Positions 541 to 26,817 of a stretch of DNA of 26,817 bases are shown piece by piece. The position numbers and the translations under genes are program-made. Source of the stretch: Pseudobdellovibrionaceae bacterium (GTDB lineage Bacteria > Bdellovibrionota > Bdellovibrionia > Bdellovibrionales > Bdellovibrionaceae); contig JAYWDA010000012.1 in assembly GCA_043780105.1 (NCBI GenBank), forward strand, positions 1 to 26,817. Direction: 5' to 3'. A model generated the notes under the pieces. It was given only the letters and a program-made list of their open reading frames with translations, was not told where the DNA came from and did no database searches. Each line of letters starts with the position of its first letter. Position 1 is the stretch's first letter.

Positions 541-568
541 TTGAGTTTTTGTTAGTAAAAACCGATCA
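541..568 (+). promoter_or_regulatory. Sigma-28 (FliA)-like promoter TTGAG-N15-ACCGATCA
   Basis: Resembles the sigma-28 consensus (TAAAG...GCCGATAA). Spacing is identical to the sites upstream of 3319 and 20974. It ends 6 nt before the ATG. Confidence 0.6.
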
Positions 569-574
569 ACTTGT

Positions 575-3151
575 ATGCTTTGGTACGTCAAAATCATCAT
601 TTCAGCATGCTTGGGTTTACTTGTGTTTTCATCGACTTCGCAGGCTGTGCCGCAAAACCTTTCCTTTCAATCTAAGATTTATAAACCAGATGGAACTCCG
701 CTTGACGCTGCTAGCGTAAGTTTTCGGTTTACTACAGTGGATCCGACAGGAACTTGTATTTTATTTGTCGAAGATTTTGCAGGCGCTAACATGTCTGCAT
801 CTGCCGGTTTAATTATTTTGAACTTAGGCACTGGAACAAAGGTTTTTCCCACCAGTGCTTATACTTACAAAAATGTTTTTAATAATTTAAATCCAACGTT
901 CAGTTGCCAAGGTGGAGGTACTTATACACCCGGCGCAAGCGGAGCAGATAATCGAAAAATTATTGCACAGTTTAATGATGGCACTGTGGCTGGTTGGCAA
1001 ACACTGCCAGCGATCGATGTGAATTCTGTACCCTTTGCAAATTATGCCGGTGATTCAGTCACGTTAGCAGGTTTTCCAGCCGGAGATTTTTTACGTAATG
1101 CCACTTTACCACTTTGTGCAACCGGAGAAGTTTTAACCGCATCTGATCCGGGTTCAGGAAGAACGTTAAGTTGCGTTCCAGTGGCCGCATCAACGGATGC
1201 CACAGCAATATCAAAAGGTGTAGTGCAAATTGGTTCTGGATTAAATGTTGCTGCGGGCGTTATAAGCCTTGGTAATTTCGATGCGGCAAAAATCACAACG
1301 GGAATTATTTCGCCTGCACGAATAGGATCTGGAGCACCCGGTGCCGGTAATTTTCTTCGTGGTGATGGTGTGTGGACTGCTATTTCTGCTGGCGGCGTAT
1401 CAAGTGTCTCGTCGACAAATAGTTATTTAACAATTGCAACACCCGCAACGACTCCAGCATTTACGGTTAACGTTGGCACCACTCGAAATCGTCTTGCATC
1501 CGTGGATCTAACCACAGGCAATGTGACTGGCTGGAACCCAAATATAGACAATCTTGTTAATGCTGTGGCAATCAGCGGTGCGAATGTTTATGCGGGTGGA
1601 ATCTTTACGTCGGTAAATGGCGGAACCACTCGAAATTATTTGGCCGCTTTGGATCTAACCACAGGCAACGTAACTGCTTGGGATCCTAATATGAATGGCA
1701 CTGTCAACGCAGTTGCAATCAATGGCGCGAATGTGTACGCGGGCGGAAGCTTCACCGCAGTTAATGGCGGGACTATTCGAAATCGTCTTGCAGCATTGGA
1801 TTTAACCACGAGCACTGCAACTGCATGGGATCCTAATATGAATAATAGCGTCAGCGCTGTGGCAATCAGTGGTACGAGTGTGTATGCAGGCGGATTTTTT
1901 ACAACGGTAAATGGTGGAACGACTCGTAATCGACTTGCGGCATTGGATTTAACCACGGGCACTGCAACTGCATGGGACCCCAATATGAATAATTTTGTCA
2001 CCGCTGTAGCAATCAGTGGTTCGAGTGTGTATGCAGGCGGATATTTTACAACGGCTAATGGCGGAACCACTAGAAACTACTTGGCCGCTTTGGATCTTAC
2101 CACGGGCACTGCGACTGCATGGGACCCTAATGTGAATAACTATGTCAACGCTGTGGCAGTCAGTGGAGTGAATGTTTATGCGGGTGGAAATTTTACGATG
2201 GTGAATGGTGGAACCACTCGAAATCGTTTAGCAGCCTTGGATCTAACTTCGGGCTTTGCAACTGCATGGGACCCTAATATGAATGGTCCGGTCAACACTT
2301 TGGTAATCAATGGTACAAATGTTTACGCAGGCGGAAGCTTTACGACGGTGAATGGTGGAACCACTCGAAATCGTATTGCGGCCCTAGATTTAACCACAGG
2401 TACTGCGACTGCCTGGAACCCTAATGTAGGTAACTCTGTCAATACCTTGGCAATCAGCGGTACGAATGTTTATGCGGGTGGACTCTTTACGTCGGTTAAT
2501 GGCGGAACCATTCGAAATTACCTGGCCGCCCTTGATCTATCGACGGGTACTGCGACTGCATGGAACCCTAATATGAATACCATTGTCAGCGCTGTGACAG
2601 TCAGTGGTACGAATGTGTATGCGGGTGGAAACTTTTCGACGGTAAATGGTGGAACCACTCGAAATCGTCTTGCGGCCTTGGATTTAACAACGGGCACTGC
2701 AACCGCTTGGGATCCTAATATGAATTCTGCGGTCAGCGCTGTGACAGTCAGTGGCACGAATGTGTATGCGGGCGGAAGCTTTACGACTGTAAATGGCGGA
2801 ACTATTCGGAATCGTATTGCAGCATTGGATATAACTTCGGGCACTGCAACGGCATGGGATCCCAATGTGAATAACACGATTAAGGCGTTAGTTATCAGTG
2901 GCTCGAATGTGTATGCGGGTGGACTCTTTACGTTGGTGAATGGCGGGACTGCTCGAAACTACATGGCCGCATTGAGTCTTGCCACGGGTGCTGTGACTGC
3001 CTGGAACCCCAATACGAATAGCGATGTCCGCACTCTAGCTATTAGTGGTACAAATGTGTATGCAGGTGGCGTCTTTACAGCGGTGAACGGGAGCAAACTC
3101 TCCGGTAACTACTGCGTGATTAATCAAACTTCGGGGATTAGTTTACCTTAG
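575..3151 (+). CDS. Secreted chimeric adhesin: fibre N-terminal domain (aa 1-301) fused to 11 x 49-aa beta-propeller repeats
   Basis: Sec signal (..SSTSQA/VP). The N-domain LSFQSKIYKPDGTPLD...TCIL is shared with 3319 and 20974. After FTVNVG the sequence switches to the RNRLAALDLTTG..WDPN..VYAGG.FT repeat that also occurs in the gene at 25678. Confidence 0.85.
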   Translation: MLWYVKIIISACLGLLVFSSTSQAVPQNLSFQSKIYKPDGTPLDAASVSFRFTTVDPTGTCILFVEDFAGANMSASAGLIILNLGTGTKVFPTSAYTYKNVFNNLNPTFSCQGGGTYTPGASGADNRKIIAQFNDGTVAGWQTLPAIDVNSVPFANYAGDSVTLAGFPAGDFLRNATLPLCATGEVLTASDPGSGRTLSCVPVAASTDATAISKGVVQIGSGLNVAAGVISLGNFDAAKITTGIISPARIGSGAPGAGNFLRGDGVWTAISAGGVSSVSSTNSYLTIATPATTPAFTVNVGTTRNRLASVDLTTGNVTGWNPNIDNLVNAVAISGANVYAGGIFTSVNGGTTRNYLAALDLTTGNVTAWDPNMNGTVNAVAINGANVYAGGSFTAVNGGTIRNRLAALDLTTSTATAWDPNMNNSVSAVAISGTSVYAGGFFTTVNGGTTRNRLAALDLTTGTATAWDPNMNNFVTAVAISGSSVYAGGYFTTANGGTTRNYLAALDLTTGTATAWDPNVNNYVNAVAVSGVNVYAGGNFTMVNGGTTRNRLAALDLTSGFATAWDPNMNGPVNTLVINGTNVYAGGSFTTVNGGTTRNRIAALDLTTGTATAWNPNVGNSVNTLAISGTNVYAGGLFTSVNGGTIRNYLAALDLSTGTATAWNPNMNTIVSAVTVSGTNVYAGGNFSTVNGGTTRNRLAALDLTTGTATAWDPNMNSAVSAVTVSGTNVYAGGSFTTVNGGTIRNRIAALDITSGTATAWDPNVNNTIKALVISGSNVYAGGLFTLVNGGTARNYMAALSLATGAVTAWNPNTNSDVRTLAISGTNVYAGGVFTAVNGSKLSGNYCVINQTSGISLP
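1478..3094 (+). repeat. 11 tandem 147-bp (49-aa) coding repeats, beta-propeller blades
   Basis: Counted by hand: TTRN(R/Y)LAALDLTTGTATAW(D/N)PNMNxxVxAxAISGTNVYAGGxFTxVNGG x11. 11 x 147 bp spans exactly 1478..3094. Confidence 0.92.
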
Positions 3152-3283
3152 GAAAATGGTCAATTTTAGCGTCTCAGCGTGATTCAAAATAAAGTCGTGA
3201 TACATCCACCACAGGCACAAAGTCCCGTTTCAGGATTTTGGTCGATTTTGTAAAACTTTTTTTCAGTGTTTGTTCAGGTTTGA

Positions 3284-3311
3284 TCAAGTTATGGTAAACA
3301 AAATCCGATAG
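3284..3311 (+). promoter_or_regulatory. Sigma-28 (FliA)-like promoter TCAAG-N15-TCCGATAG
   Basis: Same two boxes and 15-nt spacer as the other two fibre genes. It ends 7 nt before the ATG at 3319, with no SD. Confidence 0.65.
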
Positions 3312-8910: not shown

Positions 8911-11900
8911 ATGAAGGTCACACGACGTGGGTTTTTAACAAAAATAGCAAATTATTCAAAACTATCCTTGGCGATGAGCTTTGCTCCGATTGGATTCTGG
9001 ATCACTTTATTTCGTGAAAATGCAGAAGCGCAAATGTTGAAACATGGCCTTTGGAAACGTCGAAGTGTTGTTGGTACGTTGTGGGCGTGGGGATGGAATT
9101 CCAGCGGGCAGCTGGGTCAAAATGATGTTAATAATTACTCTTCGCCTGTTTTAGTCGGCAATCAGCGTTTATGGGCCGAAGTTTCAACGGGCTACGAACA
9201 CACTTTAGCAGTAAGAACCAACGGGACACTTTTTGCGTTTGGAACTAATGATTGGACACGACTTGGCGACAGCACAAATATAAACCGATCATCGCCAGTG
9301 CAGGTGGGTGCATTAACAAATTGGTCCAAAGTTTCAGCTGGCAGAAATCATTCTTTAGCAATTAAAACGAACGGCACATTGTGGGCATGGGGTCGAAATA
9401 CGGAAGGTGAGTTGGGAATTCCATATGTTGAATTAACGAAAGACTCGCCCATACAAATTGGAGCTTTAACAAATTGGTCACAAGTTTCTGCTGGTGGTAT
9501 TCATACAGCCGCTGTTAAAACTGATAATACCTTATGGAGCTGGGGCGATAATTATATTGGACAATTGGGTTTCGGACCACCGAACCTGCCGACATTATCA
9601 AATTCAAGTAATAATTGGACTGAATTTTCTGCAGGCAGTGCCTATGTCATAGCAAAAAAAACAACTGGAACGTTGTCGGGTTGGGGCGGAAATTACGATT
9701 CGCAGTACACAACGTTAGGCCTTGGTTCTAGTATTTTCACATCGTCGCCCGTGCAAATTGGTGCATTAACCAACTGGCAAACTTTTTCTGCAGGTGCGAC
9801 TCATGTTCTAGCTGTAAAAACAGATGGTACACTTTGGGCTTGGGGGTCTAACGGTGCTGGACAAATCGGTGATGGCACAAGCATGTATTTATATAACGCT
9901 GTGAATTCCCCGATTCAAATTGGCAGTGGGACTAATTGGCAAAAAGTTTCCGCAGGTGATAATAGGTTCTGGGGTCATTCTTTAGCAATAAAAACAGATG
10001 GTACACTTTGGGCTTGGGGTAACAATGATAATGGTCAACTCGGATTACAGTTACCAAATATCCCTTTGCAAATAGGATCATTAACAACCTGGGCAAATAT
10101 AAATACAAGTTTAACTCACTCTTTAGCAGTTAAAACAGATGGAACACTTTGGGCTTGGGGACAAAATACTTTTGAATGGAGCGGCTCTTTAGGTGATGGG
10201 ACGAATATCAATCGATCATCACCAGTGCAAATTGGTGCTCTAACAAACTGGTCTATTGCATCAGCAGGTGCCGGGGCTACTTTGGCGATTAAAACCGATG
10301 GCACATTGTGGGCTTGGGGTCGAAATGATAGCGGTCAATTAGGTAATAGCACAACAACTTGGACATCTTCGCCAATTCAGATTGGTAGTAATACAACGTG
10401 GACAAAAGTGGCTTCATCTGGTGGTACTAACTCGGGTGGCTTTTCTACGGCTGTAAGATCAAATGGATCGCTGTGGCTATGGGGAGAAAATAACCGCGGT
10501 CAGTTAGGTGATAGCACGATAATTAGCCGATCATCGCCAGTACAACTTGGTGCACTAACAAATTGGAGTTCAACAGCTGTCGGTCGGCAACATGTGATAG
10601 CACTTAAAACAGATGGAACATTGTGGGCTTGGGGTAATAATGAAAATGGTCAACTGGCTGATGGCACAATAGTCGATCGATCGTCTCCGGTTCAAATAGG
10701 GTCAGCAACAAATTGGTCAAAAATTTCCACAGGCAGATACAATGCGGCCGCTATCAAAACGGATGGGACATTGTGGGTTTGGGGTAATAATGATCAGGGC
10801 CAACTTGGTAACGGCACGACATTAAGCACTTCATCACCAATACAAATAGGATTAAGTACGAATTGGTCTTTTATAAAATGTGGTCAAGAAAGCCCACACA
10901 CAGTTGCTATTAAAACAGATGGTACAATTTGGTCTTGGGGTAACGGTCAAAATGGAAGATTAGGCCAAGGTAATAATAATTTTTACAGTTCACCAGTGCA
11001 AGTGGGCACATTAACAAACTGGTCTAATGTGACTGTTGGTGATGGAACTTCGATGGCTATCAAAACGGATGGAACGATTTGGTCTTGGGGTGAAAACTCA
11101 AACGGAAAATTAGGGCTTGGTAGTTTATACAATTTTACAATACCCAATCAAGTCGGAGCATTAACAAACTGGTTAAAAATATGTGCGGGCAAAATTTCCT
11201 CTTTTGCGGTAAAAACGGATGGTACTTTATGGGCCTGGGGAGACAATACCGAAGGCCGGCTTGGTGATAACACAATAGTAAACAAGTTATCACCAATACA
11301 AATCGGAGCCTTAACTAATTGGGCTGACGTTTCACATCTGACGGAGCATACACTCGCAGTAAAAACAGATGGAACACTTTGGGCTTGGGGTGCCGATTAT
11401 TTTGGAAAACTTGGTCTTAATGTATCGTTTGTATCACGCAGTTCACCCGTGCAAGTGGGCGCATTAACAAATTGGTCAAAAGCAGTTGCAAGCAGTGGAC
11501 ACTCATTGGCGTTAAAAACGGATGGAACAATTTGGTCTTGGGGTTACAACGATAAAGGTCAGCTTGGTCAGGGCAATAACGTTTCGTTGTCGTCGCCAAC
11601 TCAAGTTGGAACTGACACAAACTGGGCAAAAATTGATGCCAATGAATCCTCATCTTATGCCATGAAAACGGATGGAACAATTTGGGCTTGGGGTGAAAAT
11701 GGTATAGGGCAGTTAGGTTTTGCTCCTGCGAATTCGCCCGTGCAAGTTGGTGCTTTGACAAATTGGTTAAAAGTTTCAGCAGCAGAATATTTTACTGCTG
11801 CCATTAAAACTGACGGAACATTATGGACCTGGGGTGCTAATAATAATGGCCAATTAGGCGATGGAACAACAATCAATAAATCATCACCCGTGCAAATTGG

Positions 11901-12258
11901 TGCGTTAACAACATGGTCAGATATTTCTGTTAAAAATGAACACACATTAGCTTTGAAAACTGATGGCACATTGTGGGTGTGGGGTAATAATACAACCGGG
12001 CAATCGGGTAGTGGAAATACAACTAATTATTCATCCCCTGTGCAAGTGGGCGCGCTAACAACTTGGTCAAAAATTGCAGCAGGCTACAATCATTCGGTGG
12101 CTTTAAAAACAGATGGCACTGTTTGGGCTTGGGGTGTAAATGCGACAGGAGAGTTAGGTGATGGCACAAATACAAACAGATCATCACCTGTGCAAATAGG
12201 CGTATTTAAAAATTGGGTTAAAATATCTGCAGGCAACCAAACTATGGCGATTAAATAA
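8911..12258 (+). CDS. RCC1-repeat beta-propeller protein with twin-arginine-type signal (1115 aa)
   Basis: N-terminal TRRGFL and an AEA cleavage site. 21 repeats of GTLWAWGxNxxGQLG...SSPVQIGALTNWxxVSAGxxHxxAIKTD. SD-like AAGGA upstream; starts after a 21-nt gap following the fibre stop. Confidence 0.92.
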   Translation: MKVTRRGFLTKIANYSKLSLAMSFAPIGFWITLFRENAEAQMLKHGLWKRRSVVGTLWAWGWNSSGQLGQNDVNNYSSPVLVGNQRLWAEVSTGYEHTLAVRTNGTLFAFGTNDWTRLGDSTNINRSSPVQVGALTNWSKVSAGRNHSLAIKTNGTLWAWGRNTEGELGIPYVELTKDSPIQIGALTNWSQVSAGGIHTAAVKTDNTLWSWGDNYIGQLGFGPPNLPTLSNSSNNWTEFSAGSAYVIAKKTTGTLSGWGGNYDSQYTTLGLGSSIFTSSPVQIGALTNWQTFSAGATHVLAVKTDGTLWAWGSNGAGQIGDGTSMYLYNAVNSPIQIGSGTNWQKVSAGDNRFWGHSLAIKTDGTLWAWGNNDNGQLGLQLPNIPLQIGSLTTWANINTSLTHSLAVKTDGTLWAWGQNTFEWSGSLGDGTNINRSSPVQIGALTNWSIASAGAGATLAIKTDGTLWAWGRNDSGQLGNSTTTWTSSPIQIGSNTTWTKVASSGGTNSGGFSTAVRSNGSLWLWGENNRGQLGDSTIISRSSPVQLGALTNWSSTAVGRQHVIALKTDGTLWAWGNNENGQLADGTIVDRSSPVQIGSATNWSKISTGRYNAAAIKTDGTLWVWGNNDQGQLGNGTTLSTSSPIQIGLSTNWSFIKCGQESPHTVAIKTDGTIWSWGNGQNGRLGQGNNNFYSSPVQVGTLTNWSNVTVGDGTSMAIKTDGTIWSWGENSNGKLGLGSLYNFTIPNQVGALTNWLKICAGKISSFAVKTDGTLWAWGDNTEGRLGDNTIVNKLSPIQIGALTNWADVSHLTEHTLAVKTDGTLWAWGADYFGKLGLNVSFVSRSSPVQVGALTNWSKAVASSGHSLALKTDGTIWSWGYNDKGQLGQGNNVSLSSPTQVGTDTNWAKIDANESSSYAMKTDGTIWAWGENGIGQLGFAPANSPVQVGALTNWLKVSAAEYFTAAIKTDGTLWTWGANNNGQLGDGTTINKSSPVQIGALTTWSDISVKNEHTLALKTDGTLWVWGNNTTGQSGSGNTTNYSSPVQVGALTTWSKIAAGYNHSVALKTDGTVWAWGVNATGELGDGTNTNRSSPVQIGVFKNWVKISAGNQTMAIK
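9073..12255 (+). repeat. 21 tandem RCC1 repeats (~47-58 aa each)
   Basis: Counted from the G(T/S)(L/I/V)W..WG anchors; repeats 4, 7 and 18 are shortened. Confidence 0.9.
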
Positions 12259-16049: not shown

Positions 16050-17222
16050 TTATTTGCAATAGACAGAATCAATTTCGCTAACAAAGGTCGATTCAATTGA
16101 GTGACCAATTTTAAATTTTGCAGGATCTGATTTAATCCAGTCCACACCATCCGTGCTTTTATAGACTGTTTGTGCGCTGTAATCACCGTTACCGCCGCTG
16201 ACAAAAATATAAGTTCCTGTTTTTTTATTGTAAGCTGCCGCAGGAGCGAAATACCAGCCCGCATTTTGACCATTTATTTTTATAAAAGTGTTGGTCCAGT
16301 TTAATCCGTCTGCGCTTTTGTAAACACGGGCGTTATCAACCGCGTTGGTCCACGCCAGAAAATGCGTTCCGTTAAACACAACTGACGACCAATCGTTTCC
16401 AATCTGCACCGATGACCAAGTTTTTCCACCATCCGCAGATCTGGTGATGTAACCCGTACTGAGCTGTCCGTTGACGTAAGTTTTTCCGACGGTCACAATA
16501 ACTCCGTTGCCTTCAGCAAATGACCGCAGTTGCGATTTTGTTGGCAGTACGTCTTGTAAAAGTGTCCACGTGCTGCCTTTGTCATAACTGGCTGCCATGT
16601 GGGCGCCGCGGCCGGCAATAAAAATACTATCCTTCACTTTATAAACCGCGCCGTAACTGATGCCACTTGCGACACTGTCGATATTTGTTAATTTGTTCCA
16701 GGCGCTACCAAAAGTTGATGATGTCGACCAGTCGGGCCCTGCGTGAAAAACTTGATCTTTAAAAGCGGCAACTCCGCCACCCCAAGAACCGCTGCGCACA
16801 GTTTCCCAGTTAAGACCATCTTTAGATCTTTTCAGGCTGCCGTTGTAACCCCAACCGTAGTTGATGTACGTGTATCCGTCAGCGTCGCTAATTCCATAAA
16901 ATGTGCGGGGTGAGTGTCCTTGTACGATTTCTCCACGGGCACTATCATCAGCCGAGCGGTCGTTAAACCAAGTTTCTCCGTCGTCACATGACATGGCAGT
17001 CCTTTCGTTCTGACCAGCAGCAAAAATAACAGTTTTCATAATTCCACTGGGAACTAAAACCGGATTCGCGACCGGAAGATTAACGCCAAGATTGGAATCT
17101 GCACCAGAGCCATCTAGACTTGCAGATATGAATTTTGATTGTAATTTTGTCGAGCAATTTTGAAAAGGCAAGATGACAATGAGTAGAACGATATTCAATA
17201 AAAAGAAGCGACTTGTTTTCAT
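16050..17222 (-). CDS. Lipoprotein with BNR/Asp-box repeats (sialidase-like beta-propeller)
   Basis: FQNC lipobox and about seven Asp-box-like motifs (SCDDGETW, SKDGLNW, SYDKGSTW, SADGGKTW, SADGLNW, STDGVDW); SD-like GGGGA. Confidence 0.78.
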   Translation of the reverse strand: MKTSRFFLLNIVLLIVILPFQNCSTKLQSKFISASLDGSGADSNLGVNLPVANPVLVPSGIMKTVIFAAGQNERTAMSCDDGETWFNDRSADDSARGEIVQGHSPRTFYGISDADGYTYINYGWGYNGSLKRSKDGLNWETVRSGSWGGGVAAFKDQVFHAGPDWSTSSTFGSAWNKLTNIDSVASGISYGAVYKVKDSIFIAGRGAHMAASYDKGSTWTLLQDVLPTKSQLRSFAEGNGVIVTVGKTYVNGQLSTGYITRSADGGKTWSSVQIGNDWSSVVFNGTHFLAWTNAVDNARVYKSADGLNWTNTFIKINGQNAGWYFAPAAAYNKKTGTYIFVSGGNGDYSAQTVYKSTDGVDWIKSDPAKFKIGHSIESTFVSEIDSVYCK

Positions 17223-17466: not shown

Positions 17467-19263
17467 ATGAAACCACAAGATAAAGATATATTTTTAATGC
17501 CTACTAAAAATAAAACGCGAATTATTGCTTCGATCATTTATTTAACTTCGACCCAGATTTTATTTAATAACTGCTCAGCGATAAAACAATCTTATTCGAC
17601 CCAGGAATACACGGCTTCGTCATCTGATTCATTGGCTTTAAAATTACAAGGGCCCGGTGCGGCTTCACTTCGCCGGATGTCTAATATTGAATACATCAAT
17701 TCGCTGAAACATGCGGTCGAAATTCAATTTAAACGTAGGTCCAGTGCAAATAATTTTGCGACAGAAATTTTTCAATATAGGGGTGGTGATTCCATTCTTC
17801 AGACTGTCCCCTCTGACACTCGGGACACGAATGTTTCGACGAATCAAGTGGCAGCAAATTTAACAGCTTCGAAGTTTGATGCATATTTAAAGGTCTCAAG
17901 AACAGTTGGAAAAATAATTGCTGATGATTTAAATTTTCTAAAAGCCTTTGCTGGTTCATGTGTTTCTGACAAAACAGATATTTCTAATCAAGTTTGCGTT
18001 GATCAGTTCATCAACGAATTTGGTCTGATAGTATTTCGCGCGCCAGTCAACCCAACCGAGCTGGCAGAGATAAAAAAAGGTGCAACAGACTGGAACAGTT
18101 TAATTTCAAGATTGTTGGTGCATCCACGATTTTTAGTGCCTTACTTCAGAGCTGGAACCAAAGTTGGTGGCAGTGATATTTACGAATTGTCGAATTATGA
18201 AATTGAAGCTAAGCTGACTTCTGTTTTTTGGAAAAGCTTACCTGATTTAGTTGGTTTGCAAGCTGCCGAAAAAGGTTTGTTAAAAACCGAAGCGGGATTA
18301 AGATCTGAAATTCAGCGTATACTGGATTCACCCAAAGCCGAAGCCATGATGTGGGAGTTTTACAAACAGTGGCTGGGTGAAAGTCGCATTCCTGGTGACA
18401 TGCGCCTGGGTCAAGAGTTTAATTTAATCACTGGATTTAATTTTGATAACGACACCAATAAAAACGGTCCTTATTTGCAGGGTATCCGAGACGACGCCAA
18501 TGAATTTTTAAGTTATTTAACATGGAAGCAAAAAGCAAAATTAGAAACATTATTTACCAGTCCATTGTTGTTTCCAAGACAAACCGATGTCGCTTTGGTT
18601 TACGGTGTCACTGCCAGAACCAGCATTACCGACCCACCTATTACGGATCAAACGGGTAACTACAAAGGAATTTTAAGTCGTCCATTTATTACCGTACAAA
18701 AACCAGGATCCTACGGAAGTATAAATCCGATTCAGCGTGGTTACCTACTAGCTCTGAATGTGATGGGCATCAAATTAGGTAAGCCAGTTAATTTCGGCGA
18801 ACAAAATGCAGTTATTGTTCCACCCGAAGCAAGTACTTCTCATGAGACCAGATTAAAAACCAATACGGCCGCATGTATATCCTGTCATTCAGTTATCAAT
18901 CCGGCCGGTTTTGCCTTAGCCAATTACAACGCTGTTGGTAAGTACATGACAATCGAGAAAAGATACAAACAAGCAACTCTTGTGGCATCAAATCCAGTCG
19001 ATGCAAAATCAAATTTAACTTTAGGCGGAAAGTATTATCAGATCGATGGCTTAGGAAGTTTTGTTGACGCAATGATTGATAGCGGGCAATTAGTAACTGG
19101 TTTTTCAAACTATTATTTTGAATTTACCCAAGGCCGTTCTGCTTCGCCAGACGATCAATCTTGGATCAATCGTTTTAAATCAAGTCTTCGCAATAAAAGT
19201 TTATATGACGCTTTAACAGATTATGGCATGGACAAAGATTTCGCGCGAGTTCGCGCTAAGTAA
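17467..19263 (+). CDS. DUF1592/DUF1588-type (PSD-domain) lipoprotein with CxxCH
   Basis: FNNC lipobox, LRRMSNIEYINSL, LSNYEIEAKLTSVFWKSLPD, GILSRPF..NPIQRG and CISCH..INPAGFALANYNAVGKY. The true start could be the ATG at 17497. Confidence 0.82.
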   Translation: MKPQDKDIFLMPTKNKTRIIASIIYLTSTQILFNNCSAIKQSYSTQEYTASSSDSLALKLQGPGAASLRRMSNIEYINSLKHAVEIQFKRRSSANNFATEIFQYRGGDSILQTVPSDTRDTNVSTNQVAANLTASKFDAYLKVSRTVGKIIADDLNFLKAFAGSCVSDKTDISNQVCVDQFINEFGLIVFRAPVNPTELAEIKKGATDWNSLISRLLVHPRFLVPYFRAGTKVGGSDIYELSNYEIEAKLTSVFWKSLPDLVGLQAAEKGLLKTEAGLRSEIQRILDSPKAEAMMWEFYKQWLGESRIPGDMRLGQEFNLITGFNFDNDTNKNGPYLQGIRDDANEFLSYLTWKQKAKLETLFTSPLLFPRQTDVALVYGVTARTSITDPPITDQTGNYKGILSRPFITVQKPGSYGSINPIQRGYLLALNVMGIKLGKPVNFGEQNAVIVPPEASTSHETRLKTNTAACISCHSVINPAGFALANYNAVGKYMTIEKRYKQATLVASNPVDAKSNLTLGGKYYQIDGLGSFVDAMIDSGQLVTGFSNYYFEFTQGRSASPDDQSWINRFKSSLRNKSLYDALTDYGMDKDFARVRAK

Positions 19264-19274
19264 GGAATAGGAAT

Positions 19275-20852
19275 ATGAAGAAAAATAATTTACCGAAAAA
19301 TGTTATAATCAATCCAAATTCCAGACGTATGTTTTTAAAATCAGTTGGTGGATTGTCGCTAGCGCTTCCGTTTTTGCCATCACTGGCATCGTTAGTTCTT
19401 TCTGAAAAATCGATGGCTGCGCAGATTAACCCAATTCGCTTTGTTAGCGTGCGCACAAACTTAGGTGGCCTAAAACATTCCAGTTGGGTCGGACCTAATT
19501 TGCCAACACAAAGTTTTGAACTGTATCCCGGTCAATTTGGCCGCAAAGATTTGATCGCTAATTTGGCGGGGCCCTCAGGGTTGTCACCGGTTTTTGATAA
19601 TTCGTTTGCAAGCTTATATCCGTATATGAACTTTATTTTAGGTGCGGATTTACCTAGTGTCTACGGTCATAATGTCAATGCGGGCTCTGGTGCTATTGCC
19701 AATAAAATCAGAAATTTTACCTCGGAAGGTCAAGGCACTTTGTTCGGTGAAGTCCCAAGCGTCGATCAAGTGATGGCTTTTTATAGTAAAAACGGAGTAT
19801 ACGGTTCGAATATTTCTGGGCGCACACGTTACATTAATATAGGCTCTTCTGAATCTTACGGCCGCGATGATTACGATTTGCAATCTTTGCCAGTTGTTCA
19901 GCGGGAAAATGTTTACGGTGCTGCAGGAGTTTTTAGTACTTTGTTCGGATCAGTTGCACCAGCCGATATGCAAAGTGCAACTCCAAGTGCAAATCCACTT
20001 TTGAATTTAGTGAATGAATTTTGGGCTTCGGGTAAATCTTTGATTCGAAGCTTGTCGACCGAAGATCGCAGATCACTGGATCAATTGTTTCAATTGGCCC
20101 AGCAGGCTTCAGAAGATTATGCGCAGCCGGGTCCATCGTGTTCGGGTTATGTTAAACCAGCCGATAATAGTTATTCAATGTCCGATTACGCTGACGTCAT
20201 CGCGATGGCTTTTAAATGTGATTTAACTCGAATTGTAAATATTGACTTACATGAGTCTATTAATGGTTACAATTGGCATGACTGCAGTCATACCGAATAC
20301 AAAGACCCTAATTTTGCAACTCGGCAGAATGAAATGATCCAGATATTTAATAATATTGCCAATAAGTTTTTTTTACGTTTGGGTACAAATTTGAACGTGG
20401 CTGATCCGATGAATCCGTCACAAACCCTTTTGACTAATTCCTTGATCAAGTGGACTCATGAAAACAAAGTGGCCCATGAAACTTTTTCTTTACCGGTGAT
20501 GTTGATGGGTGCTGCAGGTGGCAGAATCAATACTGGAATGGTTGCTGATTTACGTAACACAGCAATGCCATCGTTTGGAACAGATTACAGCGGCGATGGC
20601 ATGTATCAAGGTGATTTATTGAATAGATTGTGGCCCACATTATTTTACGGAATGGATGTTCCAAAATCAGCCTACGAATATCAGCGTGGTGGTGGACCTG
20701 TTTCACTTTCATTAGATAAAGGTTACGGTCATTTGATTCAGGAAAAAGCAGCTTGGTTTTACAGCCTTAATCACACAGTCAATACATACAACATATCAAA
20801 AATCGGTGAGCCTTGGGAATTTTTGCGAAAAAGTTCTGTGAACTGGGGTTAA
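19275..20852 (+). CDS. DUF1552-family Tat-exported protein
   Basis: SRRMFLK..ALPFLPSL Tat signal, SVDQV, MAFKCDLTRIV and WHDCSH. Canonical position after a DUF1592 gene; SD AAGGA/AGGA. Confidence 0.85.
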   Translation: MKKNNLPKNVIINPNSRRMFLKSVGGLSLALPFLPSLASLVLSEKSMAAQINPIRFVSVRTNLGGLKHSSWVGPNLPTQSFELYPGQFGRKDLIANLAGPSGLSPVFDNSFASLYPYMNFILGADLPSVYGHNVNAGSGAIANKIRNFTSEGQGTLFGEVPSVDQVMAFYSKNGVYGSNISGRTRYINIGSSESYGRDDYDLQSLPVVQRENVYGAAGVFSTLFGSVAPADMQSATPSANPLLNLVNEFWASGKSLIRSLSTEDRRSLDQLFQLAQQASEDYAQPGPSCSGYVKPADNSYSMSDYADVIAMAFKCDLTRIVNIDLHESINGYNWHDCSHTEYKDPNFATRQNEMIQIFNNIANKFFLRLGTNLNVADPMNPSQTLLTNSLIKWTHENKVAHETFSLPVMLMGAAGGRINTGMVADLRNTAMPSFGTDYSGDGMYQGDLLNRLWPTLFYGMDVPKSAYEYQRGGGPVSLSLDKGYGHLIQEKAAWFYSLNHTVNTYNISKIGEPWEFLRKSSVNWG

Positions 20853-20939: not shown

Positions 20940-20967
20940 TTAAGCTTTAGTCAAAAAAATCCGATAA
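20940..20967 (+). promoter_or_regulatory. Sigma-28 (FliA)-like promoter TTAAG-N15-TCCGATAA
   Basis: Closest match to consensus of the three fibre promoters. It ends 6 nt before the ATG, with no SD. Confidence 0.68.
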
Positions 20968-20973
20968 ATCACT

Positions 20974-23900
20974 ATGCTTCGGTACGTAAAAACTATATTG
21001 ATTACCTATTTAGGATTACTAGCGTTTTCAGTATCAGCACACGCTGTACCATCAAGCCTTTCCTTCCAATCTAAAATATACAAACCCGATGGCACACCAC
21101 TTGAGGCCGCCAGCGTTAATTTTCGATTCACCACCATGGATCCTACGGGAACTTGTATTTTGTATGTCGAAGATTTTATTGGTGCTAGTATGACAGGGTC
21201 AACTGGGTTAGCAATTTTAAATTTGGGTACGGGAACAAAAGTTTATCCAACGGGTGCTTTCACATTTACCAGTGTGTTTAATAATTTAAGTCCGATGTTT
21301 AACTGCCAAGGTGGCGGGACCTATTCGCCGAATGTTGCGGGCATTGACAGTCGAAAAATCATTGCGCAGTTTTATGATGGCTCGGCAGCGGGTTGGCAAA
21401 CGTTACCAGCCATTGATGTGAATTCGGTGCCGTTTGCAAATTACGCTGGAGATTCTGCAAAGTTAGCTGGGTTTCCGGCAAGTGATTTTTTACGATTTAC
21501 GGGTTTGCCAGTTTGTACGGGAAGTGATGTACTGACGGCGGTGAATTCAGGTTCAGGGACAAATTTAGTTTGTGTTCCAGGTACAGCAGCATCTGTGGAC
21601 GCAACGACAACCTCAAAAGGTGTGGTGCAAATTGGTTCAGGACTAAATATTGCCGCGGGCATTATTAGCTTAGGCAATTTTGATGCGGCAAAAATCACAT
21701 CAGGAATTATAGCTCCTGCAAGACTTGGAACTGGAATACCGGGTGCAGGTAATTTTCTTCGTGGCGACGGTGTTTGGTCTAATGTGCCCGCAGGAACGGT
21801 ATCCAGTGTTACCTCTACAAATGGGTACATCAGCATAGCTACGACAACAACAACTCCGGCATTAACTTTAAATGTTGGAGTTTTAGCTGGAACCGTGGCT
21901 GCCGGAAATGATTCACGCTTTACCGATGGCCGCGCACCCATCGGCGCAGCTGGCGGAGATTTAACCGGAACGTATCCGAATCCAACTCTGAACACTTCGG
22001 GTGTGGTCGCTAACAGTTACGGAAGTGCTTCGGGTGTTGCCACATTTACAGTTGATAATAAAGGACGCTTAACGACAGCGGGAACATCACCCATCGCAAT
22101 TGCTGAAACTCAAGTTACAAATTTAACGTCAGACCTTGCTTCAAAAATTACGAACGTAGGATCTGGTTTAGGTAACGTGGTGTTAACCTTACAATCTGGA
22201 AACACGGCAGGTTTACCTGCGGCAGGAACAGATGGCCGCGTTTATTTTGATACGCAAGCAAAAGTTATTTACCGTGATAACGGTACAAGTTGGATTCCGA
22301 TAGCAAGCAATGCAGGTTCTGGCGGTGACATCACTGACGTTATTGCAGGAACTGGTTTATCAGGTGGTGCTGCTTCAGGTGCGGCCACTTTAAATTTAGC
22401 AAATACAACAGTCGCGCCGAACAGTTACGGATCAGCATCTGCCGTTTCAGCGTTTAGCGTCGATGCACAAGGGCGCTTAACAACGGCTGCAACAACTCCG
22501 ATTGCAATTGCAGAATCTCAAGTTACTAACTTGGTTACTGATCTTTCCAACAAGCAGCCGTTAAATGCACAACTAACAAATATTTCTAGTTACGCACCAA
22601 CTGCAGATAATTTTATTGTGGGTAATGGAACAAATTTTGTTTTAAAAACTCCGGCGCAGGCGCGGGTAAGTATTGGTTTAGATGTAGCGGGTGGAGATTT
22701 AACAGGAAATTACCCGAATCCAACTTTAGCTAATATTGTCATTTCAGCGACGAACACAAAAATCACGTACGATGCCAAAGGTCGCGTGACATCGGGCACT
22801 TCGCTTGTTGCTAACGATATTCCAAATTTAGATGCTTCGAAAATTACTTCCGGAATTTTACCAATTGCAAACGGCGGTACTGGTGCTACGACGGTCGCAA
22901 ATAATTTAGTTTTTGCAGGTCCCTCTACTGGTGGTCCATTAGCACCAAGTTTTAGAACTTTAGCTGCCAGTGATATTCCTAGTTTAAGTGCAACCTATCT
23001 GCCGCTAACTGGAGGCACTGTTACTGGCAATGTCAATTTTGAAACGCAAATCGCTTTAAAAGATTCAACATCAAATTATGTGACGATCAAGTCTCCAGCA
23101 ACGGTGACTCCATACACTTTGTCACTTCCGGTGAATGCAGGAACGACCGGTCAGTTTTTAGCAACAGATGGCAGTGGAGTACTAAGTTGGTCAGCTTCAT
23201 TGCCACAAAACAGTTCTGTCATTTATCAAGCACGAGTTGCAACAACTCAAAATATCAGTTTCTCTGGGCCACAAACGATTGACGGTGTTTCCGTTATAGT
23301 CGGTGACCGCGTCTTGGTAAAAAATCAGTCAAGTGCTACGCAGAACGGAATTTACGTTGTCAATGCGGGCGGTTTTACGCGGGCTTCTGAATTTGATACT
23401 TGGATTGAAACAATCGGATACAAAGTTCAAGTTACTGAGGGTACTAGCTATGCAGGATTTTTATTTTCTACTAGCACAGTTGTTGGTGGAACAATTGGAT
23501 CTCAAAATATTAAGTGGAATACTCAGGGAAATAATAATGGCGCCAGTCGTTTAACGGCTTACGGTGTTGATACTTTAAACTCTAATAGCTCTGGCTCAGA
23601 CAATGCGGCGTTTGGCCAATCTGCATTGGCAGTGAATACAATAGGTTTTCAAAATACCGCCGTTGGAACTCAATCGATGGCTTACAACACAACCGGTTCG
23701 TCTAATACCGGTATCGGTGCTTCAGCGCTTTTAACGAACTCAACAGGATCTAACAATACGGCGGTAGGCACTGGGGCACTATTCGTGAACACAACGGGAA
23801 ACGAAAATACGGGTTTAGGTGTTTCAGCATTAGGCAATAACTCGACGGGATTTTGGAATGTGGCCGTTGGTTCAAGCGCAATGTCTACAAATACAACTGG

Positions 23901-25677
23901 TTTGGGAAACGTCGCAATTGGCCGACAAACTTTACGACAAAACACAACCGGCGGTTACAATGCTGCAATTGGATTTCAATCCAACTACGAAAATATTACG
24001 GGTGCTGAAAATACCAGTATTGGTTACAACTCATTGTACAATAATAAAGCGCAAGATAGAAATACAGCAATTGGTAGTGATTCTATGTTTTATGCAAATG
24101 ATTCACTAACTGCTGGTACCGGCATGAATACGGCCGTTGGATACTCTGCCCTTCGTGGAAGCGCGACAGCTGCAAATAACACAGGATCTGCGAATACAGC
24201 TATTGGTGCCTATGCCTTGCAAGTTGTCACCTCGGGATCGAATAACGTAGCGATCGGAAATCTGGCGGGTGCCTCGATAACATCTGGTTCGAATAACGTG
24301 ATCATTGGAGCTAATACGGGAGCAACGTTTGCAACCACTTCAAATAATATTTCAATTAGTGATGGTTCCGGTACGGAACGTATTCGTGTTTTATCTTCAG
24401 GAAATGTCGGTATTGGATTAGCAAATCCAGGATACAAACTAGATGTTGCGGGCGATGTGAATATCACCGGAAATTTTCGTGTGAATGGCACCGCGATCGG
24501 CGGCGGCAGCGGAACAGTTACAAATGTGACATCTACGAACGCTGATATTGGTGTTGCAACAGGAACAACAACTCCTGTTTTAACTTTAAATTCTGGAACA
24601 GCTGCGAATCAAATTGTTAAATTAAATGCGACAGCGCAGTTGCCAGCGGTTGATGGATCATTATTAACAGGTTTTACTGCAGCACAAATTCCAAATTTGG
24701 ATACAGCAAAAATCACATCTGGAATATTGCCAGTTCTTCGCGGCGGTACCGGAAATTCTAGTTTTGCAATCAACAGCGTGATCGCATCAAACGGAGCTGG
24801 CAATCAAATCGCAGTTCCAGGAACAACGTCGAACACGATGTTGCAGTATTCTGTGACCGGGCCCGTTTGGTCTTCAGCAACTTTTCCATCAACGACGACT
24901 GCGAACCAATTATTATTTTCTTCAGCAACTAATATTGTTGGTGGATTATCTTCGACGAATGATTCCGTGCTAACAACAAACGGAACGGGTGTTCCATCAT
25001 TTGTCAGTTCACTGCCAGCAACGATCGGTGGTACGGGCCAAACAACTTACGTACTTGGTGATTTACTTTATGCTTCATCGGTATCTGCCTTATCAAGATT
25101 GCCAGCTTCGACAACAGGATTAGTTTTAACAAGTAACGGTGTAGGAACTGCGCCAACATGGCAAGCAAGCGCTTCAAGTTTACCAGCGGCTAGTGGAACT
25201 GCAGCGGCACCAGGTTATGCGTTCAGTGGTGATACGAATACAGGAATGTTCGGTGCAGCAGCTGATCAAATTGGTTTTGCTACGAACGGTGTAGAGCGTG
25301 TTCGTGTGGATGCCAGCGGAAACGTCGGTATTGGAACGACGATGCCGAGTGCAAAACTAACTGTTGCGGGCACAGCGAACTCGCTTCCAAATATTGTATC
25401 TTCTGGGGCGAACGTTGATTTAAGTTTATCCAATGTCCATCTTTTACAATCAGTGGGGGGGTCTGTTATCGCACTTTCAAATATTGCAAACGGGGCAAGT
25501 TATACGCTTGTTATAAGCGACACGGCCCAACAAGTTTATACTTTTACCGGATGCACAAACAGCTACTTCAGCCCTACAAATGGCCAGACTTTTCAGCAAA
25601 GCACCTATTCGATTTTAGCGATTGTAGTTGGGGGCAGCACAAATTGCTATATCAATTGGGTCACGGGGTTTAATTAG
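20974..25677 (+). CDS. Large secreted phage-tail-fibre-like mosaic adhesin (1567 aa), paralog of 3319
   Basis: Same signal, N-domain and stalk as 3319 up to YLPLTGGT. Then a unique cassette (DRVLVKNQ..QNGIY domain plus 17-aa repeats), shared stalk again, and a C-terminal domain ending CYINWVTGFN. Confidence 0.85.
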   Translation: MLRYVKTILITYLGLLAFSVSAHAVPSSLSFQSKIYKPDGTPLEAASVNFRFTTMDPTGTCILYVEDFIGASMTGSTGLAILNLGTGTKVYPTGAFTFTSVFNNLSPMFNCQGGGTYSPNVAGIDSRKIIAQFYDGSAAGWQTLPAIDVNSVPFANYAGDSAKLAGFPASDFLRFTGLPVCTGSDVLTAVNSGSGTNLVCVPGTAASVDATTTSKGVVQIGSGLNIAAGIISLGNFDAAKITSGIIAPARLGTGIPGAGNFLRGDGVWSNVPAGTVSSVTSTNGYISIATTTTTPALTLNVGVLAGTVAAGNDSRFTDGRAPIGAAGGDLTGTYPNPTLNTSGVVANSYGSASGVATFTVDNKGRLTTAGTSPIAIAETQVTNLTSDLASKITNVGSGLGNVVLTLQSGNTAGLPAAGTDGRVYFDTQAKVIYRDNGTSWIPIASNAGSGGDITDVIAGTGLSGGAASGAATLNLANTTVAPNSYGSASAVSAFSVDAQGRLTTAATTPIAIAESQVTNLVTDLSNKQPLNAQLTNISSYAPTADNFIVGNGTNFVLKTPAQARVSIGLDVAGGDLTGNYPNPTLANIVISATNTKITYDAKGRVTSGTSLVANDIPNLDASKITSGILPIANGGTGATTVANNLVFAGPSTGGPLAPSFRTLAASDIPSLSATYLPLTGGTVTGNVNFETQIALKDSTSNYVTIKSPATVTPYTLSLPVNAGTTGQFLATDGSGVLSWSASLPQNSSVIYQARVATTQNISFSGPQTIDGVSVIVGDRVLVKNQSSATQNGIYVVNAGGFTRASEFDTWIETIGYKVQVTEGTSYAGFLFSTSTVVGGTIGSQNIKWNTQGNNNGASRLTAYGVDTLNSNSSGSDNAAFGQSALAVNTIGFQNTAVGTQSMAYNTTGSSNTGIGASALLTNSTGSNNTAVGTGALFVNTTGNENTGLGVSALGNNSTGFWNVAVGSSAMSTNTTGLGNVAIGRQTLRQNTTGGYNAAIGFQSNYENITGAENTSIGYNSLYNNKAQDRNTAIGSDSMFYANDSLTAGTGMNTAVGYSALRGSATAANNTGSANTAIGAYALQVVTSGSNNVAIGNLAGASITSGSNNVIIGANTGATFATTSNNISISDGSGTERIRVLSSGNVGIGLANPGYKLDVAGDVNITGNFRVNGTAIGGGSGTVTNVTSTNADIGVATGTTTPVLTLNSGTAANQIVKLNATAQLPAVDGSLLTGFTAAQIPNLDTAKITSGILPVLRGGTGNSSFAINSVIASNGAGNQIAVPGTTSNTMLQYSVTGPVWSSATFPSTTTANQLLFSSATNIVGGLSSTNDSVLTTNGTGVPSFVSSLPATIGGTGQTTYVLGDLLYASSVSALSRLPASTTGLVLTSNGVGTAPTWQASASSLPAASGTAAAPGYAFSGDTNTGMFGAAADQIGFATNGVERVRVDASGNVGIGTTMPSAKLTVAGTANSLPNIVSSGANVDLSLSNVHLLQSVGGSVIALSNIANGASYTLVISDTAQQVYTFTGCTNSYFSPTNGQTFQQSTYSILAIVVGGSTNCYINWVTGFN
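23557..24318 (+). repeat. ~14 imperfect 17-aa repeats (N-T-T-G-x-x-N-T-A-I-G-x-x-A-L-x-x), YadA-head-like beta-roll
   Basis: Ten consecutive 17-aa units from NSSGSDNAAFGQSALAV to NKAQDRNTAIGSDSMFY, then about four more after short insertions. Confidence 0.85.
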
Positions 25678-26817
25678 ATGTGCTACTTAAAACTTTTGTT
25701 CGCAGCACTGGCGGTTACTTTTTGTAGCCTTACTACGAAGGCGCAAACCCCCTTTTCTAAGCCTTTCGGATTTGGCGGCGCTTCGATGAAAACTCCTGTG
25801 TGCGCAAATGGATCAATCGAGGCCATGGTACCATATTTAAATCGGCTGATGATTGTCGGCGGAACTTTCACGCAAATCGGTCCATGCTCTGGCAGTGGGG
25901 TGCCGTTAAACTTAAGCACGGGAAATAAAGTCAGCAGTTTTGATTGGTCCATCATGGGTGTGGTCGGCACAGTTAATGTGGCTATTTCAGACGGCGCGAA
26001 TGGCTGGTACATCGGGGGAAGCTTTACGGCTATAGGCACTAATAGCATTTTATATCTGGCGAAAATTTCTTCAACGGGTGCAGTTGATACATCTTTCAAT
26101 GCAAATCTTGATGGCAGTGTCGCTGCGCTTTATTTAGACGGCACAACCTTGTATGTCGCTGGCAGTTTTAACTATTTAGGCTCGGTGTTACGACCACAGT
26201 TAGCGGCCGTGAATGCAGCCACTGGGGCCGTGATCAACAGCTTTAATGGTGGCATCGGGACAAGTGTCAATGCTTTGACTAAATATGGAAGTAGCCTTTT
26301 GATTGGTGGTAGTTTTACGACCGTCAATGCCGCAAATGCGAATAACAGAGGAGCTGTTTTTGATACGACTTCAGGAGCTTTGCAAACAAATTTCCCGTTT
26401 GTGAATGGATCCATAGGTGTTGCTATTCCGGATGGTGCAAATGGATGGTACATCGGCGGATCATTTTCCAAAGTGGGAAACGCTTTAAGAAATAACTTAG
26501 CCAGAATTTTGGCTGATGGATCGGTATCCAATTGGAACCCTAATATGAATAGCAGTGTCCGCGCTCTGGCGATCAGTGGAACGAATGTGTATGCGGGCGG
26601 ATTTTTTACGACGGTGAATGGCGGAACCACTCGAAATCGTCTTGCAGCCTTGGATCTAACTACGGGTGCTGCGACGGCCTGGAACCCCAATATGAATAAC
26701 TATGTCAGCGCTTTGGCAATCAGTGGTACGAATGTGTATGCGGGCGGAAACTTTACGACGGTGAACGGCGGAACCCTTCGAAACCGTTTAGCAGCTTTGG
26801 ATCTAACCACGGGCACT
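25678..26817 (+). CDS. Secreted beta-propeller repeat protein, 3' truncated by window edge (missing from ORF track)
   Basis: ATG directly follows the fibre TAG, and 380 codons are open to the window end: MCYLKLLFAALAVTFCSLTTKA/QTPFSKPFGFGG...DGANGWYIGGSFT...WNPNMNSSVRALAISGTNVYAGGFFTTVNGGTTRNRLAALDLTTG. It carries the same 49-aa repeat as 1478..3094. Confidence 0.92.
   Translation, partial: MCYLKLLFAALAVTFCSLTTKAQTPFSKPFGFGGASMKTPVCANGSIEAMVPYLNRLMIVGGTFTQIGPCSGSGVPLNLSTGNKVSSFDWSIMGVVGTVNVAISDGANGWYIGGSFTAIGTNSILYLAKISSTGAVDTSFNANLDGSVAALYLDGTTLYVAGSFNYLGSVLRPQLAAVNAATGAVINSFNGGIGTSVNALTKYGSSLLIGGSFTTVNAANANNRGAVFDTTSGALQTNFPFVNGSIGVAIPDGANGWYIGGSFSKVGNALRNNLARILADGSVSNWNPNMNSSVRALAISGTNVYAGGFFTTVNGGTTRNRLAALDLTTGAATAWNPNMNNYVSALAISGTNVYAGGNFTTVNGGTLRNRLAALDLTTGT

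Follow-up and report, generated by a model that had tools for sequence, protein, structure and literature searches.

The open reading frame (ORF) at positions 575-3151 of contig C12 (JAYWDA010000012.1) of a Pseudobdellovibrionaceae bacterium is a real, intact gene in which the base of a mosaic adhesive trimer (MAT) fibre has been joined in frame to the propeller of a usually separate partner protein. We put the probability of our best explanation as a whole, with the origin by deletion and the presumed working of the product included, at about 0.6. Its parts that are built on results are the architecture of the gene, the reality of the junction, the occurrence of fused and unfused forms, and the predicted folds of the trimer and the propeller. 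The window that we analyzed is the complete contig (26,817 nt), which is the longest contig in the bin of an uncultured organism known from metagenomes only. This bin was placed in the same family as Bdellovibrio. MAT fibres are known from Bdellovibrio bacteriovorus, where they were described in 2024 as the means of recognizing a wide variety of prey (Caulton et al. 2024, PMC10769870).

To the extent that contigs can tell, the junction between the two halves of the gene is not an assembly artefact. Among Logan contigs, which are assembled run by run, those of three samples cover positions 1-2359 (4-2359 in one of them) with zero mismatches. A contig of a fourth run (2021) covers positions 1425-1831, again with zero mismatches across the junction. 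No alternative joints or loose ends were reported among the contigs of the four runs, all of which belong to one sediment-metagenome study and are dated 2021 and 2023. A second gene call, 594 amino acids (aa) long and located on a 22.7-kb contig, likewise crosses the junction, and an exact look-up of this alternative call returned no record. An earlier note on this DNA had proposed an in-frame fusion at this place and had named an artefact of assembly as a finding that would refute it; the contigs of four runs bridge the junction without mismatch.

Architecture of the fused gene

The features of the ORF and of the two genes used as comparators are as follows (all on the + strand).

541..568, +, predicted sigma-28-like promoter motif (TTGAG-N15-ACCGATCA), from an alignment of three fibre upstream regions
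575..646, +, Sec-type signal peptide, aa 1-24 (...SSTSQA, then VPQ), read from the translation without a signal-peptide predictor
617..1099, +, MAT-family N-terminal domain (Bdello_MAT_N), aa 15-175; NCBIfam NF053851, 132 bits against a cut-off of 60; genome search C12:617-1099
1100..1477, +, short trimeric neck, aa 176-301, from alignment A3 and the homotrimer prediction
1463..1486, +, junction 24-mer, with fibre-diagnostic bases to 1474 and propeller-diagnostic bases from 1479
1478..3094, +, eleven complete 147-nt (49-aa) beta-propeller units of the DUF5122/delta-60 type, aa 302-840, from repeat analysis, AlphaFold2 and Foldseek; PF17164 in homologues
3095..3151, +, 18-aa C-terminal partial unit (KLSGNYCVINQTSGISLP) and stop codon, the native end of the propeller family, from sequence comparison
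20974..25677, +, full-length MAT fibre of 1567 aa on the same contig, comparator in an unfused pair
25678..26817, +, separate propeller gene, comparator, with a signal peptide of its own, followed by divergent N-terminal blades and canonical 49-aa units; runs off the contig

The frame is open over 858 aa, with no stop or frameshift. Three genes with a MAT N-terminal domain are found on the contig, starting at 575, 3319 and 20974, and we refer to the latter two and to the separate propeller gene by their start positions. The signal-peptide layout of the fusion is also that of its paralogues and of other MAT proteins (alignment A3), and its neck contains two MAT-fibre modules, KGVVQIGSGL...FLRGDGVW and SSTNSYLTIATPATTPAFTVNVG. 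Residues 1-301, hereafter the N-part, align end to end with the long fibres 3319 and 20974 (71% and 73% aa identity). The nucleotide identity of the N-part to both paralogues is 71-72%, with a saturated synonymous divergence (dS) of 1.4-1.5. This bears out the earlier statement that the N-part is distinct from both other fibres and that the gene is therefore no simple mis-join of 20974 and 25678.

The propeller part starts at aa 302 (TTRNRL). The alignment and the mapping of the units confirmed the boundary that had been read from the sequence, namely fibre over aa 1-301 up to TPAFTVNVG and a propeller repeat from TTRNRL onward. At the DNA level, the units of the fusion are 67-85% identical to one another; their identity to the two canonical units that can be seen in gene 25678 is 75-86%. 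Their most variable positions are 24-28, 42 and 45, which, judging from sequence variation, form a candidate binding face. The tail of the gene shows 88% nucleotide identity over 92 nt to the end of another contig of the bin, C214, and the propellers of genome G104 finish with a comparable partial unit. The signal peptide and the divergent N-terminal blades of gene 25678 are absent from the fusion. Of the fibre, nothing follows the neck (aa 176-301): a profile search found no match in the fusion to PF13884 (S74) or to any other tip domain. The absence of the stalk, of the fibre C-terminal domain and of the divergent blades was thus rightly noted before. In the N-part, the ratio of nonsynonymous to synonymous divergence (dN/dS) lies at 0.12-0.14; between repeat units it is 0.21.

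The promoter-like motif ends 6 nt upstream of the ATG of the fusion. The blocks at 541-568, 3284-3311 and 20940-20967 have in common TTnAnnnAG, about 15 nt and AAAAnCCGAT(A/C), and they precede the three fibre genes. The block resembles a sigma-28 promoter; no obvious ribosome-binding site accompanies it, and the remaining intergenic DNA has diverged. A terminator scan 3' of the fusion yielded a single weak hairpin (3218-3240) that was not above chance.

The propeller repeats also hold an annotation trap. The Pfam model Urease_beta matched the fusion (73 bits, cut-off 25) and was rejected, as no single stretch passed and the score was a sum of weak repeat matches. NCBIfam urease-beta models match the propeller repeats as well (best stretch aa 750-790), and one source names a propeller homologue "urease beta subunit".

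Fused and unfused forms across genomes

The fused form was found in this genome alone. We ran a query spanning the junction (aa 180-440) against 41 relatives and, after that, against 181 genomes of the family; this genome alone matched it over its full length. Searches with the N-part in a collection of 5.8 billion proteins retrieved 61 other proteins with a MAT N-terminal domain (471-2743 aa), in none of which precomputed Pfam annotations place a propeller, and every match of a whole-protein search was confined to the propeller part. A DNA pattern for the junction peptide (TxNVGTxRNxLA) matched one genome contig and eight metagenome contigs, all of which encode unrelated proteins.

This contig carries the unfused order of fibre and then propeller, as do at least four further genomes (G104, G118, G070 and G060) from three or four other genera. 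Wherever the boundary was read, the two genes abut or sit one base apart. On this contig, the stop codon of fibre 20974 ends at 25677 and the propeller ATG begins at 25678. There are two pairs in G104: in the first (L026 12164/12163), the genes of a 1430-aa fibre and a 1410-aa propeller abut, and in the second (L025), about 0.8 kb separates the called fibre and propeller ORFs. The fibres of G104 share their tip domain with fibre 20974, and its propellers start with a similar peptide after the signal sequence. In G118 (L024 7939/7941), the fibre of the pair is short and frameshifted and has this tip as well, and a propeller orthologous to 25678 starts one base later. In G070 and G060, members of the genus of the HD100-like genome, a fibre ORF with the MAT N-terminal domain lies directly upstream of a propeller ORF, as judged from coordinates. 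An ancient and widespread fused architecture had been named as an outcome that would refute the earlier proposal; the fused form was found in no other genome or protein searched, and it is the unfused pair that recurs.

Weak fragments of the MAT N-terminal domain upstream of the G118 propeller had made this genome a candidate for a second fusion. We rejected it: the frameshifted fibre has its own stop codon and the propeller is separate. The short fibre of this locus (L024, G118:C5, 6168-10000) is spread over at least three frames and has kept the conserved tip, which ends in ...NCYINWVTGFN. The propeller gene also changes frame, at 9488. The broken frames of the locus reflect either decay or sequence errors.

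Sequence of the junction

Diagnostic bases map the crossover to positions 1475-1478 (GGCA), and the peptide that spans the junction is ...PAFTVNVGTTRNR... At this place, fibre 3319 and the propeller repeat match in register at 18 of 24 nt. We scored all in-frame pairs of 24-nt stretches, one from fibre 3319 and one from the canonical repeats of gene 25678 (n = 136,826). The score of 18/24 was the maximum of the scan and was reached by three pairs, among them the junction site; the other two pair a single fibre site with two copies of a repeat. The three codon strings from which the match had originally been read proved exact on re-reading, and the match is now the joint top score of an unbiased scan. 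We count the scan as support rather than proof.

The likeness extends to the protein level, where two conserved motifs are similar, (F/L)TxNVG(T) at the fibre hinge and FTxVNGGT in the propeller. This hinge is present in all close MAT relatives. Because the two motifs are alike, propeller alignments from other genomes often begin at aa 295-301 of the fusion. Alignment A3 indicates that the hinge closes a module that is absent from, or differently continued in, some family members, and the junction therefore lies at a typical boundary of the MAT mosaic. Two proteins of this alignment (P0131 and P0132) pass from the N-domain to the STNSYL...TxNVGT module without the intervening module of about 70 aa, KGVVQIGSGL...FLRGDGxW, which shows a gain or loss of whole modules directly beside the fusion point.

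Predicted structure

We modeled three copies of aa 24-301 as a homotrimer, using an alignment of 14 relatives, three runs and three controls. The ipSAE score was 0.87 in all three runs, and the best control reached 0.00. The predicted local distance difference test (pLDDT) score was 88-89 (partner at least 87), with 95-96% of contacts common to the runs. Confident contacts cover about aa 147-300 and thus reach the junction. In calibration, this ipSAE mark was reached by 20 of 30 solved one-chain pairs versus 1 of 23 solved single chains, figures that apply only roughly to three copies and a custom alignment. The score may partly reflect likeness to solved MAT stalk structures. For the N-terminal domain, no homologue in the PDB was reported (PMC10769870).

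The AlphaFold2 monomer gave the propeller a pLDDT of 80-95 over about aa 370-840, and the top Foldseek matches were beta-propellers, both eight-bladed and tandem. Judging from the strand pattern, each blade would combine two strands from the end of one unit with two from the start of the following unit. The array would then comprise eleven complete blades, the last of them closed by the tail, and the first half-unit (aa 302-325) would lack partner strands.

Origin and working of the fusion

We propose that a fibre gene and the adjacent propeller gene lost everything from fibre codon 301 to the boundary of a propeller repeat unit. The lost part would comprise the stalk, the C-terminal tip domain, the stop and start codons between the genes, and the signal peptide, N-terminal peptide and divergent blades of the partner. 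The break would have fallen at the site where the fibre hinge resembles the propeller motif. The fusion retains the promoter-like motif, start and signal peptide of a fibre together with the native end of a propeller, in operon order, and one in-frame deletion is therefore the simplest route. If the parent was like the pair at 20974, the deletion would have removed at least about 4.7 kb. This deletion mechanism is one that we infer.

The product would be exported by its signal peptide, and the N-domain would hold it on the surface of the predator, as proposed for MAT fibres. Residues 147-300 would form an intertwined trimer, with each chain bearing 11 propeller units whose positions 24-28, 42 and 45 would form ligand-binding loops. 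In place of a long fibre whose partner can detach, the predator would have a stubby trimer with three covalently attached propellers near its cell surface. Its location at the surface and its binding of prey are presumed from this scheme.

Several observations weigh against this reading. The exact microhomology amounts to about 3-4 nt only, within a longer imperfect match, and the junction site is unexceptional when the same scan is run with fibre 20974 (sequence there LTLNVGVL). No operon can be singled out as the parent: the N-part lies at much the same distance from the two paralogues (dS 1.4-1.5), and its phylogeny is an unresolved polytomy. Because a deletion destroys its own parent, the divergence and the tree of the N-part are silent on when the fusion arose. 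A fibre beside the orthologous phosphoesterase occurs in one relative only, G164 (GFS_4320), whose flanking genes are orthologous (82% aa identity for the phosphoesterase and 59-88% for the block from the RCC1 gene to 14857). There the MAT fibre that follows the phosphoesterase is cut by the contig end at codon 269, 32 codons before the junction. Its missing 3' part was not found in its own genome, where both fibres appear to reach contig ends. Four other genomes of this genus (G162, G165, G167 and G178) have no fibre downstream of the phosphoesterase. The dN/dS values mostly reflect history before the fusion and are no proof of selection on the fused product. The AlphaFold2 monomer is poor for aa 20-353, which leaves the packing of the first half-unit unmodeled, and expression is presumed for a gene known from DNA alone. 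Finally, the four sequencing runs share one study and three of them may be source samples of the bin; their support is independent assembly, not independent sampling.

The earlier note had ascribed the gene to the microhomology-mediated collapse of a fibre and propeller operon. The order of the parts, the motif match and the existence of unfused pairs support this proposal in part, and the data do not separate a local deletion from ectopic recombination or from a swap of tips at the hinge.

Alternatively, ectopic recombination or a MAT-type swap of tips at the TxNVGT hinge might have joined a propeller segment from elsewhere, with no local deletion. The MAT family has been described as a mosaic with tip swapping (PMC10769870), the junction lies at a module boundary where other members change content, and no parent pair is demonstrable at this locus. 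The propeller tail is also nearer to the other propeller gene of the genome (88% nucleotide identity) than the N-part is to either fibre (71-72%), although a comparison over 92 nt is too short to weigh. On the other hand, the halves stand in the exact order and orientation of a conserved operon, so a single deletion is simpler, and that operon occurs on the same contig and in other genera. We consider this exchange unlikely, while giving it a real share of the probability.

It is also possible to regard the fusion as the recent product of a neutral or harmful deletion, with a frame that is open because it has not yet decayed and without a working adhesin. The fusion was seen in one population only, its expression is presumed, and the first propeller half-unit lacks partner strands and is modeled with low confidence. 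Moreover, the terminal branch of the N-part is the longest in its group (0.24 versus 0.13-0.15 for the two paralogues). However, 858 codons have stayed open across 11 slippage-prone repeats, the promoter-like motif and the signal peptide have been kept, and the predicted trimer is strong up to the junction. The sequence is also identical in runs dated 2021 and 2023. A gene on its way to decay thus appears improbable to us.

That the fused form is ancestral, the separate genes having arisen through gene fission, is very improbable. Nothing specific favors it beyond the N-part tree being unresolved, which leaves it formally possible. The separate propellers have their own signal peptides, a common N-terminal peptide and extra divergent blades, and long stalks and a conserved tip domain characterize the separate fibres; splitting an 858-aa gene would create none of these. 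In addition, at least four genera have the unfused form, and a single population has the fused one. An assembly or binning chimera, which a fragmented bin (573 contigs, N50 5.4 kb) and a contig that ends inside propeller repeats might suggest, has a negligible probability: the contigs of four runs cross the junction with hundreds of bases per side and zero mismatches, the sequence common to both sides of the junction is only a few bases long, and the 301-aa N-part has no close match among the other genes of the genome.

Comparison with known systems

The fusion shares several properties with the MAT fibres of the non-S74 subgroup. It has a signal peptide and matches NF053851 above the cut-off, it is predicted to form an intertwined trimer with a variable C-terminal binding part, and it sits in a multi-copy fibre locus in the same bacterial family. 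In contrast, its stalk has about 125 aa, versus 1250-1550 aa in the paralogues, and its C-terminus is a 557-aa single-chain propeller array rather than an S74 chaperone or a compact trimeric cap. MAT fibres are displayed on the predator surface and relocate during prey invasion; a tip ligand is known for one member only, and the published family has no propeller tips (PMC10769870). The word "propeller" does not occur in that paper. The propeller-tipped MAT architecture is a new form of a known family of fibres.

The propeller part resembles the DUF5122/delta-60 propellers (PF17164), with 40-58% identity across its entire repeat region (63-66% of the query) and E-values near 0 to hundreds of secreted proteins with PF17164. 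It differs from them in its repeat period of 49 aa and in its score with the PF17164 model, which is below the cut-off (21.1 bits against 27; the separate propeller 25678 scores 56.1 bits). No other DUF5122 member was found with a MAT N-terminal domain.

The long tail fibres of T2-type phages carry a separate adhesin, gp38. By analogy with such two-part systems, the fusion might be seen as joining a trimeric fibre and a secreted binding protein in the same order. In contrast to them, its link is covalent, and the proposed docking domain and the N-terminal peptide of the partner have been deleted. The binding of fibre and partner in the unfused pairs is itself a proposal. In a Rosetta-stone fusion, two proteins are separate in some genomes and fused in another. 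The same holds here, with components that are separate and adjacent in G104, G118, G070, G060 and on this contig, and fused in one gene. Unlike in such fusions, only part of each component has been kept. The case therefore supports a common function and is no proof of contact between the deleted parts.

What the fusion implies

Our results suggest that fibre and propeller normally work as one device. The fusion ties the fibre functionally to the downstream propeller gene and so supports the view of the widespread unfused pairs as a single adhesin. Its main value is as evidence that supports the joint action of fibre and propeller. It also indicates that, in the MAT family, a trimer with hardly any stalk can carry a large single-chain propeller as its head. 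The junction offers a clean natural case of a new domain architecture arising at a short motif common to unrelated repeat families. These implications are bounded by one population, one study and an inferred mechanism of origin.

More tentatively, and with the balance of probability against it for now, the prey-recognition fibres of the Bdellovibrio type may often be two-part devices: the head that actually binds the prey would be a fast-evolving, separately secreted propeller carried on the fibre tip, and in this lineage one such propeller would have become permanently attached to a trimeric base of minimal size. If this is true, the gene provides a compact, directly expressible construct for finding propeller ligands. 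The protein is small and self-contained, and it is suited to binding studies.

Source contig and genomic setting

The bin is a fragmented metagenome assembly (573 contigs, 2.58 Mb, N50 5.4 kb, 78% complete, GC 42.5%). The end of the contig (26817) falls within the propeller repeats of the separate gene 25678. Positions 3010-3098 of contig C214 encode the last 29 codons of a propeller gene, evidently the 3' end of the separate gene. The DNA past the stop codon on C214 is unrelated to the DNA downstream of the fusion gene.

The genes of the contig are 59-88% identical at the aa level to those of a syntenic block in G164 (GFS_4320), which belongs to another genus, and are much closer to these than to G001-G004, the genomes listed for the genus of the bin. 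In the latter, the phosphoesterase homologues are only 42-45% identical and adjoin neither a fibre nor any other gene of the window. Because the contig genes are much closer to the other genus (82% to G164), G001-G004 are poor comparators for synteny. The contig is also by far the longest in the bin. It may be mis-binned, or the island may have been transferred. In G164, the locus L001 (JAYTPC010000136.1, 1-10810) carries the block from the RCC1 gene to 14857 upstream of the phosphoesterase. Its counterpart of the gene at 16050-17222 of the window is only a remnant, and the DUF1592/DUF1552 pair (window 17467-20852) is missing from this stretch.

A genome of the family has 21 matches to the MAT N-terminal domain on one 3.7-Mb contig, and the MAT count published for B. 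bacteriovorus HD100 agrees with this number (PMC10769870). Downstream of fibre 3319, positions 8911-12258 of the window encode a 1115-aa RCC1-repeat protein with a signal of the twin-arginine type (RRGFL). The two long fibres of the contig thus each precede a different family of propellers, RCC1-repeat for 3319 and DUF5122-type for 20974.

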